From IMG/VR virus record IMGVR_UViG_3300009646_000070: a stretch of 38,960 nucleotides of DNA; one strand, given 5' to 3'. The translations under genes and the position numbers were made by a program. Every line of letters starts with the position of its first letter. The first letter of the stretch is position 1. The stretch is from a virus. The notes below the pieces were generated by a model. It worked only from the letters and a program-made list of their open reading frames with translations, was not told the origin of the DNA and did not search any database. This document shows, piece after piece, positions 3,965 to 32,168 of this stretch.

Positions 3965-5922
3965 ATAGATTTGTCCTGTACTTGCGGCTCGACCGGGACG
4001 GCGGAGCCAATCGAAGGAACGCTATCACGTTGACGCATTTCCTCCGGCTTCACTTCACGGACTGTGGACGTACCCCCTTCCATGAATAGTGTCGTAGCTC
4101 CTCCCGGAGAGTACCGGCTCAAGTCTACGCGGGCTAGCATGTATGGCCCAAAGTTCTGTTCCTCCTCGACAAATCCTTCAAACTCATTTGCCTTAATAAC
4201 GCCGACGCGGTTGCGATGCAGGCAGATCATAGCATCAACGTTCTTTTCGATTGCGGCGGAGCCAGAGGCGTGTCGGCTAGCGACGATCTCATTGGCCTCG
4301 GGTCGGCGTGGTTGAATGACTAGAACGATGAACAGCCCAAGTTCCATGGCAGTAGCCTTGATGCGGGCACTGAGGTTGGAGATTTCTTGGGCTTGATGTT
4401 GGATGCTTTTGCACATCAACTGAAGGTTGTCCAGCACCATGAACTTGATTCCGTATCGGCGGACGGCTTGCCGGATTAGGTCAAAAACTTTTTCGGTGTC
4501 CTGCGGGTTAGTCTTTCCAAGCAGCAGGTCTGCCGTTCTTTGGCGCAAGACTTCTCTAGCCTTTTCGGTTGTCTCTTTCGTGTACTGGCTTCGCCCCGGT
4601 GTGTCATCGGTCTGTGTTACGTGGCAAACCCATTTACGAGCGATGCGACGCGGCGGCATCTCGAAGCACAAGAATAATCCCGGCTGATTTAGCTTCACTG
4701 TGAGGTAGTCGAACCAGTTCATGCAGAACGTAGTCTTACCGACCTTGCCCTCCGCAATGACTCCGCATACGTCGCCGTACTCATTTCCCCCGAGCACGAT
4801 GTCCAGCGATTTCCACGGCGTATCAATCGGCGCATCACTGGTCCCACGCTTGTCAATCTCGGCGTCGATCTCGTCCAGCGCCGTGAACATATCAGAGACG
4901 CCCGGCACTTCCAGCGGCTTTGCTTCGCTCTTCAACTGTGCGAAGTCTTCGGCGGTATGCCCGGCCTGAATCCATTCGCCAAGGTCCTTGCCGTCCTGCC
5001 CATCTTTGCGTTTGAAGGCGGGTAGTTTAATCAGCAGGCATTTCTCGATTCCGATGCGCTTGATGATTTCTGCGGCGGCGTCCTGCCCGGCCTTGTCAGA
5101 GTCGTACAAGATGTAGATTTGACGATGTGGGTCCGGCGCTAATGCCCGCTGGTCCCACCATACGTCTAGCCGGTCAATCCACGTAGCTTTCTTCATGTTC
5201 GCGCCGGGCACACCAAGTACATTGTCGTAGCCAAGGCTCATGAGTGAAATGCAATCGGCCTCTCCCTCGACGAGGATTAGCTCCGTGGTGTCGGAGTGAA
5301 TTACATCGGCGTGGTAGATCGGATTTTCGCGGCCTTTGGAGCCAAGGAATCGTGGTTCCTTGCTACCGTCCGGGCGTGTTTCGAGCCTATGCAAGGCACG
5401 CATCTTGGCGTACTGGTAGTTTCCGGCATTGATGTACGGATAGACTAGCCAGCGCCGGGCTTCATTGTTTACGCCTAGCAGAAGGCCGAGCTTCATACGC
5501 TTGATAACGTCCAATGAGAAGCCGCGCTCCGTGACGTAGCGGAATGCCTCGGCGTCATTCAGCAGGCGTTGATGACACTCTTCCAGCGGAGGCAGAGGCA
5601 GCGTTTCTCTTGGAACGGCGTCAAGCATGGAGCGAATTTCTACGCCGGGGATAGTCGCATCGCCTAGCTCTTTCTTGAGGCTTTTTAGCGTTCCTGACCG
5701 TCCGCATACTTTGCAGTCGAAAAGATAGTCCGGCTGGTTTTCCGGGTGGTTGGCGTTGACCTTCGGGTCCGTGCTGACGTAGAAGTGCTGCTCTTTCCCG
5801 CACAGCGGGCAATCAGTTAGAATCTGTGAGTCATTCGAGCACAGCTTGTGAGGCCAGCCCTTCGACTTCACGTAGACTAGCGCCTGAGATTCTTCGACCG
5901 GCATTGGTTCTTCGTAAGGCAT
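3961..5922 (-). CDS. Primase-helicase (Zn finger + TOPRIM + DnaB/T7 gp4-like helicase)
   Basis: N-terminal CPLC...CKVC; TOPRIM LVEGEADC and YDSDKAGQ; Walker A AEGKVGKT; MVLDNLQ; helicase motifs through HRNR. Confidence 0.9.
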   Translation of the reverse strand: MPYEEPMPVEESQALVYVKSKGWPHKLCSNDSQILTDCPLCGKEQHFYVSTDPKVNANHPENQPDYLFDCKVCGRSGTLKSLKKELGDATIPGVEIRSMLDAVPRETLPLPPLEECHQRLLNDAEAFRYVTERGFSLDVIKRMKLGLLLGVNNEARRWLVYPYINAGNYQYAKMRALHRLETRPDGSKEPRFLGSKGRENPIYHADVIHSDTTELILVEGEADCISLMSLGYDNVLGVPGANMKKATWIDRLDVWWDQRALAPDPHRQIYILYDSDKAGQDAAAEIIKRIGIEKCLLIKLPAFKRKDGQDGKDLGEWIQAGHTAEDFAQLKSEAKPLEVPGVSDMFTALDEIDAEIDKRGTSDAPIDTPWKSLDIVLGGNEYGDVCGVIAEGKVGKTTFCMNWFDYLTVKLNQPGLFLCFEMPPRRIARKWVCHVTQTDDTPGRSQYTKETTEKAREVLRQRTADLLLGKTNPQDTEKVFDLIRQAVRRYGIKFMVLDNLQLMCKSIQHQAQEISNLSARIKATAMELGLFIVLVIQPRRPEANEIVASRHASGSAAIEKNVDAMICLHRNRVGVIKANEFEGFVEEEQNFGPYMLARVDLSRYSPGGATTLFMEGGTSTVREVKPEEMRQRDSVPSIGSAVPVEPQVQDKSI

Positions 5923-29280: not shown

Positions 29281-29943
29281 CTTTGTGTCACTGGCAACGT
29301 ATGGCGTCGGGGCGGGCCCTACTTTGTGACACTTTGGGGCACCACCGGCGGGGATTCCTACCCCTATGACATTTTTGGTCAGTGCCGCCCGGCGGACTGC
29401 CATACTCATACTACGCAAGACGTAGCAAAAACGTTGTCCAACATGGGTCCCATCCATAGCAAAAATTACATCATGATATTCCCTAACGCAAAATCCCCCG
29501 ACTGAGGGGGTTATGTCGAACGCTGTATACTTCGCCTGCGGAGCCAAGAACTGCACACTAAACCTGAGAGGTTTATCGAGCAGGAACACTTTAGGGGCCC
29601 CTTTCCCGGCGATCCCTGCCACGCAGAGCGACGCCGGACGTTGCAGCCTACGTCCATGGGTCCCATGCGCAGAAAAAACGAAGTACGGCGCTGTCCTAAC
29701 GCCGGATGACTGCTTTGTCAACCTTAGACGGGGAGATTGTCAACTTATAGCTGATATAACAGACAGCCGTAGGAAATTGCACGAAATGACTGTTATGATG
29801 GGCATTCCTTCTCACTGGTAGGGGGGGGGTTCCTTCTCCGGGGAGCCGAAGGGTGGGAGAATCTGCTTATTGTGTGCGGGTATAACAAACAGACCCGGCG
29901 CGGGCGCTTGTTTCAGCTTTTCAGCGTTTGGTGAAATTAAGTA

Positions 29944-29972
29944 TTGACTCTTTTTCCGTTGTATGATAAGCT
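29944..29972 (+). promoter_or_regulatory. Sigma70-type promoter
   Basis: TTGACT-N17-TAAGCT with extended TG. Confidence 0.65.
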
Positions 29973-30068
29973 GGGGGAGTATATAAAATTGGGACTTATA
30001 TACATGACTCCCTCACGTTGAAAACAAAGGAAATTTGGCAAGCGAATCACCTACAAGGAGTTGACCGC

Positions 30069-30236
30069 ATGAACAAAAAATCTCAGGACTCAATATTTCA
30101 TATCTCCTGCCCCCATTGTGGCGAAGCGTTATTGGCTCACTGCGATGGCTCCGAACTTGTTCTTGAAGTTCGCTATGAAGTTGAACGTCCCACGTCGGCC
30201 AAAGCCAATAAGCCGAAGAAAGCGACAAAGGGTTAA
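30069..30236 (+). CDS. Small zinc-ribbon protein (element cargo)
   Basis: RBS AAGGAG; HISCPHCGEALLAHC. Confidence 0.6.
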   Translation: MNKKSQDSIFHISCPHCGEALLAHCDGSELVLEVRYEVERPTSAKANKPKKATKG

Positions 30237-30239
30237 GCG

Positions 30240-30362
30240 ATGAAAAAAGTTCCGCCTGTGTTGGACCGTATAACAGACGTTGTTCTAGCCTATCATCCGA
30301 AGCGAAAGGCAAAAACGAACAATCCGAAAAAGAGGAAAAATGCGACACGTCGTAGCTCTTAG
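30240..30362 (+). CDS. 40-aa basic peptide (element cargo)
   Basis: MKKVPPVLDRITDVVLAYHPKRKAKTNNPKKRKNATRRSS*; similar short ORFs are recalled downstream of IS1595-family transposases (unverified). Confidence 0.5.
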   Translation: MKKVPPVLDRITDVVLAYHPKRKAKTNNPKKRKNATRRSS

Positions 30363-31056
30363 TGGAGGGAAGGACAGCACAGCAATGGCCCTGCTTTTGG
30401 CCGAAGTTGAGCCGAGAGATTACACATACGTCTGCACTCCTACAGGCAACGAGCCTCCTGAAATGTTTGAGCACTGGCTTAACCTTGGTCGCATCCTCGG
30501 AAAGCCGCTCCTTCCCATAATTGGGGGAACGCTTGTTGGACTCATTGAAAAACAGATGGCTCTCCCGAACTGGTGGCAAAGGTGGTGTACTCGACTTCTC
30601 AAGATCGAACCTTACGCAGCTTGGCTCTCCAAACAAGGCGAATGTACATCTTACGTCGGGATTCGCGCCGACGAGCCTGACAGGGAAGGCGGGGATTACC
30701 TTGACATTCCTGGCGTGATTATGGACTTCCCTTTGAAGCGTTTGGGTTGTGGATTGAGGGAAGTCTTGGCTATCAATCAACGCCACGGAGTGACTATCCC
30801 CAAGAGAACGGATTGCGACCTCTGCTTCTTCCAAAGGCTTATCGAGTGGTGGGAATTTTGGAAGCGCAATCCGCTTGGATGGGCTGAAGGTGAGCGGCTC
30901 GAAAAGCTCACTGGTCACAGCTTCCGCTCGCCAGGAAGAGATACCTGGCCCGCTTCTGTGGAGGGACTGAGGCTGAGATTTGAGGCAGGCGACATTCCAA
31001 AGGACACAAGGCGCGACCCGCTCAATGAAATGAAGTGTCGCGTGTGTCGGTTGTAA
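30340..31056 (+). CDS. PAPS-reductase-family (PP-loop) protein (element cargo)
   Basis: VVALSGGKDSTAM PP-loop, TGNEPPE, RWCTRLLKIEP, YVGIRADE, RTDC..CFFQ. Confidence 0.85.
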   Translation: MRHVVALSGGKDSTAMALLLAEVEPRDYTYVCTPTGNEPPEMFEHWLNLGRILGKPLLPIIGGTLVGLIEKQMALPNWWQRWCTRLLKIEPYAAWLSKQGECTSYVGIRADEPDREGGDYLDIPGVIMDFPLKRLGCGLREVLAINQRHGVTIPKRTDCDLCFFQRLIEWWEFWKRNPLGWAEGERLEKLTGHSFRSPGRDTWPASVEGLRLRFEAGDIPKDTRRDPLNEMKCRVCRL

Positions 31057-31138
31057 AGCGAGCAAATCGGCCTTATGGATGCTAGTCTCAAGCACGGGAG
31101 TCATGTATATAAGTCCCATAAAATTCAAGGAGGCTGAA

Positions 31139-31516
31139 ATGAAGAAGATTTTCAGATCACTTTTGTTGGGGGCTTTGTTGGCGTTCGAGACTACCGCCGT
31201 CATCATCGCCGCCGGGGGATACACCGCCACCAAGCAATTTACGCTGACCGTCGTGGCTCCGCTGGTTATTTCCAATGTTTCACCGTTGCCTGAGGCTGTA
31301 GCGGCTCAAACCTACTCCGTAACCTTCACTGCCAGCGGAGGGATTCCGCCTTACGTCTGGTCCGTTACTACCGGCTCTACACTGCCTGCTGGATTAACTC
31401 TTACTTCGGGCGGAGTTCTGAGTGGGATGCCGACTACTGCCGGGACCTATACGTTCTCAATTACTGTCACAGACGGCTCCAATCAGAAAGCACAGTTTAA
31501 AATCGTAGGCCAGTGA
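31139..31516 (+). CDS. Secreted He_PIG/Ig-like domain protein
   Basis: Signal-like N-terminus; YSVTFTASGGIPPYVWSVTTGSTLPAGLTL...LSGMPTTAGTYTFSITVTD. Confidence 0.85.
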   Translation: MKKIFRSLLLGALLAFETTAVIIAAGGYTATKQFTLTVVAPLVISNVSPLPEAVAAQTYSVTFTASGGIPPYVWSVTTGSTLPAGLTLTSGGVLSGMPTTAGTYTFSITVTDGSNQKAQFKIVGQ

Positions 31517-31797
31517 TGAGATTATTTACAATAATCTTGTTGGCGTCGGTTTTGTTAATAGAGACATTAGGTGGGTCCGCAAAGATTCTGCCTAGTGTCT
31601 CTATCACTACTTCATCGCTGCCTGTCGCTGTAGAAAGCAAACCTTATAGATTTCAGTTAACTGCGACTGGCTGCCGTGGGCCGTGTGTGTGGAGAATCTC
31701 TGGACTGCCAAATGGACTTGTTGCAAGCTACTCGGGACTTATTCAAGGCACTCCAATAGTCTCAGGCAAATTCGTTGTAACGGTGTCAGTACGATGA
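31513..31797 (+). CDS. Secreted He_PIG/Ig-like domain protein
   Basis: Signal-like N-terminus; SITTSSLP.A...PY.FQLTATG...W.ISGLPNGL...G.I.GTP. Confidence 0.8.
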   Translation: MMRLFTIILLASVLLIETLGGSAKILPSVSITTSSLPVAVESKPYRFQLTATGCRGPCVWRISGLPNGLVASYSGLIQGTPIVSGKFVVTVSVR

Positions 31798-32123
31798 AAA
31801 AGATACTCCTGCTTTTTTTACTGCTGTGCTTTCGGCCGTCTGTGGCTGCAACAACAACGGCGTCTTTTCAGCTAGTCGTTGTGCACAATGTGCAGTTGTC
31901 ATGGACTCAGAGCAACAGCCCCAATCTCATAGGTTACAATGTCTATCGTGGTTTACAATCAGGAAAAGAAACCCTCTACTATAAGATAGGCGTCGGAGCA
32001 GGCTGGACGGATACGTATGTAGACAGCTACACAACGTACTTCTATTATCTTACCGCAGTTGATTCTTCCTCCCAAGAAAGCGTACCCTCCAATGAAACCT
32101 CTGCGACCGTGCCCGGACCTTAA
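31794..32123 (+). CDS. Secreted fibronectin type III-like protein
   Basis: Signal peptide MKKILLLFLLLC; VQLSW...GYNVYRG...TDT...TTYFYYLTAVDSS.QES..SNE. Confidence 0.8.
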   Translation: MKKILLLFLLLCFRPSVAATTTASFQLVVVHNVQLSWTQSNSPNLIGYNVYRGLQSGKETLYYKIGVGAGWTDTYVDSYTTYFYYLTAVDSSSQESVPSNETSATVPGP

Positions 32124-32139: not shown

Positions 32140-32168
32140 TTGACACGCGGGGATGTATATAGTACACT
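32140..32168 (+). promoter_or_regulatory. Sigma70-type promoter
   Basis: TTGACA-N17-TACACT, 7 nt before ATG 32176. Confidence 0.65.

Follow-up and report, generated by a model that had tools for sequence, protein, structure and literature searches.

Within a 38,960-nucleotide stretch of viral DNA from IMG/VR (record IMGVR_UViG_3300009646_000070; this whole stretch is hereafter referred to as the window), the segment between positions 29991 and 31117 is, with high confidence, a non-autonomous deletion derivative of a passenger-carrying insertion sequence (IS) of the IS1595 family. The element belongs to two known kinds, the IS1595 family and the mobile insertion cassettes, as it combines IS ends and a target-site duplication with a passenger gene and contains no transposase gene. 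The reading as a whole, namely a mobile insertion cassette that would be mobilized in trans, was inserted into the leader behind a phage promoter and carries a cargo gene resembling those for SspD and DndC, is given a probability of roughly 0.85.

The element is bounded by the inverted repeat GGGACTTATATACATGACTCCC, the two arms of which are complementary at 22 of 22 positions (23 nt when the adjoining T/A is counted). Allowing up to 6 mismatches gave no further copy of this repeat in the window, and 100 shuffles produced none. Directly outside both arms lies the same 8-bp word, ATAAAATT, as an exact match. When the whole window was scanned for identical 8-bp flanks at a spacing of 1127, which is the length in bp of the element between the duplications, a single one of 37,817 positions was recovered, and this was the element's own site. 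The flanks form a direct rather than an inverted repeat, as a target-site duplication would give, and the base composition of the element is similar to that of its surroundings. An earlier note on this DNA had described perfect 22-bp terminal inverted repeats and an exact, AT-rich 8-bp duplication bounding a 1127-bp insertion, and this description is upheld by the repeat search, the shuffles and the flank scan.

The same ends define a family of elements in phages and bacteria, the members of which are cited here by locus handles of the form L009. The exact 22-mer was found in 36 phage loci of IMG/VR and in 8 contigs of bacterial metagenome-assembled genomes (MAGs), and most loci have a second copy in inverted orientation, with 0-4 mismatches, at a distance of 0.3-2.6 kb. 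Loci in which both ends are present are mostly flanked by exact 8-bp direct repeats. Across the family, 17 exact 8-bp duplications have a G+C content of 15% in genomes of about 50% G+C, indicating that these elements favor AT-rich targets, in line with the AT-rich duplication of the window. Ends that are identical, or that differ at no more than 3 positions, flank transposase genes in L009, L014, L021, L004, L019, L003, L041, and L044. The transposase, of about 306 aa, is full-length in 12 loci and broken in several others, with identities of 68-100%. These sister transposases match the Pfam families DDE_Tnp_IS1595 (PF12762, 2e-45) and Zn_ribbon_IS1595 (PF12760, 2e-10), as well as the NCBIfam model NF033547 (206 bits against a cutoff of 75). 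The IS1595 membership proposed in the earlier note is therefore confirmed by elements with the same ends and 8-bp duplications, and the autonomous partner that the note had envisaged is present in both phage loci and MAG contigs, with additional cargo among the loci of the family.

The passengers of the family are of several types. Transposase-less sister elements with the same ends span 305-1139 bp and carry an N6/N4 DNA methylase (L034), a phrog_799 methyltransferase (L025), an XF1762/Mom-like protein (L018), phrog_12600 (L011), small open reading frames (ORFs; L002 and L015), or a second, divergent PAPS-reductase-like gene lodged between the same 44-nt ends (L005/L035), where PAPS denotes 3'-phosphoadenosine 5'-phosphosulfate. 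Passengers located beside a transposase gene include an SspD/PptA-like gene (L021), phrog_984 (L024), phrog_1273 (L003 and L044), and DUF6874 (L009). The MAG contigs with these ends are assigned to Terriglobia, Solibacteraceae, Bryobacteraceae, Casimicrobiaceae, and other groups, and hold chromosomal genes, such as those for a LeuA-type synthase, MFS and AcrB transporters, and a Ser/Thr kinase. A Terriglobia MAG of peat origin has three contigs that start or stop at the IS end, which fits a multi-copy IS.

Several other arrangements were recorded among the family loci. Tandem pairs of elements with one shared 8-bp target copy occur in L011 (477-1956, CTATATTG) and L047 (4760-5154, TTTCAAAA), suggesting that the same target was reused or that an insertion took place beside an existing end. 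The cassette of L005 (1425-2587) and L035, which runs X11 and X19 also contain, has inverted instead of direct flanks (CGCGAAAAAATG / CATTTTTTCGCG), as might result from a palindromic site or a location inside another repeat. Close to a contig end in a Gemmatimonadota MAG, L042 has (at 4747-4786) a right end truncated by its final 4 nt immediately beside an intact left end; this could reflect two ends joined to each other, one element inserted into another or an artefact of assembly. In L026 (1653-2771), a 372-aa ORF beside one 22-mer has an N-terminus that, by eye, resembles TnpB/OrfB of IS605-type elements.

The internal anatomy of the cassette records how it relates to its autonomous kin. 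The L005/L035 cassette and another contig, recovered in two peat runs, have ends that match the first 44 nt and last ~45 nt of the window cassette, and the interiors differ. In L005, the left end is followed by TTGACT-17-TACTAT, a ribosome-binding site (RBS) and the first ~30 transposase codons, all of which are missing in the window. Instead, the window encodes from position 30037 the peptide GKRITYKELTA followed by a stop, corresponding to the C-terminus of the family transposases. In tblastn searches with five family transposases, 9/10 or 8/11 residues were identical at the C-termini under relaxed settings, and no transposase homology was detected in the window beyond this 11-codon remnant, the 34 nt of which recur in other contigs of the same samples. 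The cassette is thus transposase-less, as the earlier note had stated, with the last 11 transposase codons being all that remains. An internal deletion removed the IS promoter and all the other transposase codons and left the accessory ORF and the passenger in place.

This accessory ORF constitutes a second link to the family. In autonomous copies, an ATG overlapping the transposase stop (ATGA; at 30069 in the window) starts a small basic ORF with the motif LDxIxDxVLxYxPKPK. All autonomous copies examined have such an ORF after the transposase gene, frequently with the ATGA overlap, and homologues directly after the transposase gene were identified in L021 (1680-1796), L024 (7261-7452), L037 (1514-1663), L032 (6309-6515), L047, L033, L003, L041, and L019. 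In the window the ORF is split into a Cys-rich front part of 55 aa, an in-frame TAA at 30234, and a conserved tail at 30240-30362. Pfam and NCBIfam contain no family that matches the small basic ORF, and the 55-aa ORF likewise matched none, giving only weak indications of a zinc ribbon in Pfam. The closest relative of the cargo (L083, 93% aa identity) is directly preceded by a transposase 3' end and the small ORF and hence represents a transposase-bearing form, and a 75% relative in L047 lies beside a frameshifted transposase and three IS ends. By inspection, the point at which the window and L047 diverge is the start of the IS right end in L047.

The site of insertion lies in the leader of a group of Ig-domain genes. 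The promoter-like site TTGACT-N17-TAAGCT, preceded by TG, belongs to a recurrent motif, TTGACW-N16-18-TANNNT, which has 12 matches in the window where 1.3 would be expected, with strands that accord with the direction of the local genes (sites include 1378, 6939, 17929, 19942, 27485, 29944, 32140, and 34214). Most of these matches, including 29944-29972 and 32140-32168, have a second element of the form TATG(G/T)TA..CT. At 29944, a generic sigma-70 scan did not call a promoter, and neither promoter-like nor terminator-like sites were called within the cassette. The left duplication begins 11 bp past the promoter-like site, and the right duplication ends 1 bp before the RBS AAGGAGG (31127-31133), which precedes the ATG at 31139 of a He_PIG Ig-domain gene. 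The recurrence of the motif and the position of the RBS support the location between a phage promoter and the RBS of the Ig operon given in the earlier note. All ORFs of the cassette run in the same direction as the Ig genes. As the cassette has neither a promoter of its own nor a terminator-like site, transcription of the cargo from the phage promoter together with the Ig genes is predicted and is considered fairly probable. In public gene calls, the first Ig protein is started at an ATG inside the right repeat (31103-31516; 137 aa, MYISPIKF..., 32 contigs), from which it follows that the repeat supplies an outward start codon in frame with the downstream gene.

The events leading to this arrangement may be reconstructed as follows. 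An element with the same ends, residing in the host chromosome or a co-infecting phage, would have provided the transposase that moved the cassette in trans. The cassette would have landed in an AT-rich 8-mer a few bases 3' of the phage promoter and 2 bp 5' of the RBS of the Ig module. The occurrence of sister cassettes at many sites, and of autonomous copies whose ends are identical, lends indirect support to mobilization in trans.

The cargo is a 238-aa protein that matches Pfam PAPS_reduct (31 bits against a threshold of 22.5) and phrog_424 (2e-27), and its AlphaFold model (pLDDT 93) has a PP-loop ATP-pyrophosphatase fold; together these results substantiate the PAPS-reductase-like assignment made previously. 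Among the PADLOC models, for which no curated cutoff exists, SspD is the best match (6.7e-37; residues 2-191 of the cargo on model positions 1-202 of 277), followed by DndC (1.6e-4) and BrxP (1.7e-3). The NCBIfam matches are below threshold (TIGR03183 DndC, 17 bits against a cutoff of 290), and the NCBIfam CysH models did not match the cargo at E <= 0.01. The cargo does not group with housekeeping CysH, a grouping that the earlier note had regarded as weakening its DNA-modification idea.

Relatives of the cargo number 4,875 at E <= 0.001 (90% clusters), with 1,011 representatives when clustered at 50%. Conserved across 34 aligned members are SGGKDS (residues 8-13), E38, C83, K88, D111, C159xxC162, and C233xxC236. 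The single cargo sequence gave chance-level matches against PDB sequences, so a profile search was required; the profile of the 34-member alignment matched PptA (21fy_C) at 1.4e-23 and CysH-type chains at 3e-5 to 3e-3. In Foldseek comparisons, PAPS reductase, LarE, NcsA/TtuA, and GMP synthase all scored at a TM of ~0.5, which places the fold at the superfamily level, and PDB 21fy was not among the matches from a library with entries to April 2026.

A phosphorothioate-related or anti-defense role for the cargo is tentatively suggested by these similarities, at less than even odds. The protein would adenylate a nucleic-acid substrate and transfer sulfur to it, or would interfere with phosphorothioate-based defense of the host. 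In a 2026 paper (PMC13551039), phage PAPS reductases are presented as DndC/SspD homologues in anti-defense operons, with Piel et al. 2022 cited there for a phage enzyme of this kind that favors evasion of Dnd.

The window, a segment of a large peat-soil phage genome, contains genes for a UvsX-like recombinase, a primase-helicase, a helicase, DNA and RNA ligases, an exonuclease, GroEL, and DUF932. The stretch is kept nearly word for word in 20 peat or wetland metagenome runs from 2017-2020, and no DNA match to the region was found among INPHARED phages. In two related phage contigs (L078 and L079), whose flanks to either side are 82-94% identical at the nucleotide level, the stretch 29937-32123 is replaced by 9 nt, so that the whole 2.2-kb module of promoter-like site, cassette and three Ig-type genes is missing. 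Other phages contain homologous three-gene Ig modules (65-73% aa identity) with short upstream spacers and no cassette. These comparisons between genomes are consistent with an insertion into an accessory module and do not amount to an exact empty site. The Ig module itself behaves like a moron-type accessory block. For the DUF932 neighbor, no close relative was found in IMG/VR; a 90%-identical relative lies on a 7.1-kb contig whose gene table has no 238-aa gene upstream, which serves as a hint only. Among the peat samples, a G run at 29820-29829 varies, with one additional G in one run and three fewer bases in another.

A number of observations weigh against the overall reading. Exact flank searches of IMG/VR and the JGI metagenome collection recovered neither an exact empty site nor a filled one, and none of the contigs from four peat runs skips the element. 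The empty-site alleles that the earlier note had hoped for are represented only by relatives without the whole module or by distant, cassette-free Ig modules. All 20 runs with the stretch contain nearly all of the sampled words, those of the cassette included, a uniformity that gives no sign of current mobility. With regard to the cargo, 23 phages of IMG/VR have a resident homologue (45-74% aa identity) with no IS ends or transposase within ~3.5 kb, and in L045, a Logan contig and the one resident copy whose neighbors were read, the gene lies among DnaB, methylase, SNF2, and VRR-NUC replication genes. In addition, the SspD match stops at residue 191 of the cargo, and no SspA, SspB, SspC, or Dnd partner genes were found in the cassette. 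This resident setting and the missing Ssp and Dnd partners imply that the protein may perform a routine task of phage nucleic-acid metabolism rather than counter-defense. The cargo is normally a resident phage gene and was captured by this IS lineage.

The persistence of the cassette also speaks for the explanation that it is a fixed fossil, which arrived by transposition and is now a stably inherited gene block that no longer moves. It is found in every run with the stretch over four years, no contig lacks it, and the small accessory ORF is broken by an in-frame stop. Against this, the perfect inverted repeats and duplication speak for a recent event, transposases with identical 22-bp ends are present on phage contigs as well as on chromosomal contigs of MAGs from soil and peat, and the missing empty allele is weak evidence, as contigs lose rare variants. 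A fossil state is accordingly a serious possibility, held at clearly less than one in two.

Other explanations concern the activity of the cargo. It would be unlikely, given the evidence, that RNA or a nucleotide, and not the DNA backbone, is what the protein modifies, for instance by tRNA thiolation of the TtuA/NcsA type or by another adenylation-dependent base modification. The fold does match NcsA, TtuA, MnmA/TrmU, LarE, and QueC-type PP-loop enzymes with TM-scores close to that for PAPS reductase, but the sequence is far nearer to SspD than to any tRNA thiolase, and in sister cassettes the same slot is occupied by genes for DNA methyltransferases and by a Mom-like gene. A role as an auxiliary sulfur-assimilation gene, in which a CysH-type reductase of PAPS or adenosine 5'-phosphosulfate (APS) boosts sulfate reduction of the host, is very improbable. 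The Pfam match and the PHROG annotation "auxiliary metabolic gene" would fit it, but CysH structures score far below PptA in the profile search, the SspD match is much stronger, and the resident copy in L045 sits among replication genes. CysH proteins carry a C-terminal Cys-Gly-Leu-His motif, which does not appear to be part of the conserved cysteine set of the cargo family (C83, C159xxC162, and C233xxC236). Finally, although the two arms would pair as a 22-bp duplex in a read-through transcript, the notion that they form an invertible segment, an operator pair or a long hairpin rather than transposon ends can be set aside, since the flanks are direct repeats and the same ends enclose IS1595 transposase genes as well as unrelated cargo, at many sites that are unrelated to one another and each bear a separate 8-bp duplication.

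The preferred reading of the element as an IS1595-derived mobile cassette has implications for gene exchange among phages. Insertion sequences are thought to be rare in phage genomes, and a literature search on IS1595 cassettes in phages retrieved nothing relevant. One IS1595 lineage with identical ends is distributed over dozens of uncultured phages and bacterial chromosomes and repeatedly carries phage nucleic-acid-modification genes; its cargo so far comprises three divergent PP-loop/PAPS-reductase lineages, DNA methyltransferases, and a Mom-like gene. A broader proposal, speculative and on balance doubtful, is that this lineage, shared by soil and peat bacteria (Acidobacteriota and others) and their phages, would act as a shuttle for nucleic-acid-modification and counter-defense genes, with transposases in trans placing promoter-less single-gene cassettes in AT-rich leaders behind phage promoters. 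If cassettes move in trans during infection, phages would have a means of swapping single accessory or counter-defense genes besides recombination. If this is true, identical ends in phage and MAG contigs would link uncultured peat phages to their hosts. The SspD-like cargo also offers a tractable candidate for defining the role of stand-alone phage PAPS-reductase homologues. Two features of the lineage may be undescribed: a small basic ORF, conserved and coupled to the transposase gene, and an end-to-end antisense frame free of stops.

This antisense frame forms an ORF of 363 codons (window 30013-31104, minus strand) that starts with an ATG inside the right inverted repeat (MTPV...), runs through the whole cassette and ends at a stop that is the first codon inside the left repeat; it was also noted for L009, L014, L019, L002, and L015. 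The codons TTA, CTA, and TCA are absent from the cargo gene, against 2.4% in the other genes of the window. In 10 of 12 family transposase genes the same antisense frame has no stop, against 6-16 stops in the other two frames, and resident homologues of the cargo have 1-8 stops in it. Codon bias and selection are candidate causes. The ORF was not adopted as a real gene, its translation being low-complexity-like and the frame not being kept open in the resident homologues. The features of the cassette and its surroundings are compiled in Table 1.

Table 1. Features of the cassette and the adjoining phage module, in window coordinates.
Feature	Position	Strand	Basis
Accessory module (promoter-like site, cassette, three Ig-type genes)	29937..32123	+	Without counterpart in related phages
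Promoter-like site TTGACT-N17-TAAGCT	29944..29972	+	Recurrent motif; uncalled by generic scan
Left target-site duplication ATAAAATT	29983..29990	.	Flank reading and spacing scan
Left terminal inverted repeat, 22 bp	29991..30012	+	Repeat search; 22-mer also in 36 IMG/VR and 8 MAG loci
Conserved left-end segment, 44 nt, up to the deletion junction	29991..30034	+	Common to L005/L035 and a contig in two peat runs
Transposase remnant GKRITYKELTA and stop	30037..30072	+	tblastn
55-aa Cys-rich ORF; ATG overlaps the transposase stop (ATGA), ends at TAA in frame with the next ORF	30069..30236	+	
40-aa basic ORF, motif LDRITDVVLAYHPK, small accessory ORF of the family	30240..30362	+	Homologues after transposase genes
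Cargo, 238-aa PP-loop ATP pyrophosphatase, SspD-like	30340..31056	+	Pfam, phrog_424, PADLOC, AlphaFold (AF2)
Right terminal inverted repeat, 22 bp	31096..31117	-	Repeat search
Right target-site duplication ATAAAATT	31118..31125	.	Flank reading and spacing scan
RBS AAGGAGG and first Ig-domain (He_PIG) gene of the interrupted module	31127..31516	+	Pfam

Several known systems can be compared with the cassette and its cargo. Mobile insertion cassettes (MICs) are a class recognized by ISfinder, an example being MIC231, derived from IS231 of Bacillus cereus. The window cassette resembles them in having IS ends and a target duplication around a passenger gene, in lacking a transposase and, by analogy, in its presumed dependence on a transposase acting in trans. 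It differs in being derived from IS1595 rather than IS4, in residing in a phage genome with a phage-type gene, and in retaining a transposase remnant together with the family's accessory ORF. Passenger-carrying elements of the IS1595 family were reportedly named "transporter IS" by Siguier, Gagnevin and Chandler in 2009. The present family shares with them the 8-bp duplications, the short inverted repeats, a transposase with zinc-ribbon and DDE domains (in the sister elements), and inner passengers, whereas the window copy has lost its transposase, and the small basic ORF after the transposase gene of the family fits no described family.

With respect to the cargo, SspD of the SspABCD-SspE system and DndC are alike in the PP-loop ATP-pyrophosphatase core with SGGxDS and in conserved cysteines. 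The cargo, known from its sequence, differs in standing alone in the cassette, without SspA, SspB, SspC, or Dnd partners; it is also shorter than SspD (238 aa against 277 model positions), and its DndC matches are weak. PptA (PDB 21fy, chain C) is the best solved relative by sequence, being matched at 1.4e-23 by the family profile and at 1e-31 by the sister cargo of L021, and its P-loop variant SCGAPS is nearer to the L021 cargo than to the SGGKDS of the window; a literature search on PptA found nothing relevant and no paper for entry 21fy. The phage PAPS-reductase genes of PMC13551039 resemble the cargo, by their description in that paper, in being phage-encoded, DndC/SspD-like and located in variable regions; carriage on an IS-derived cassette, the distinguishing feature of the window cargo, is not described there.

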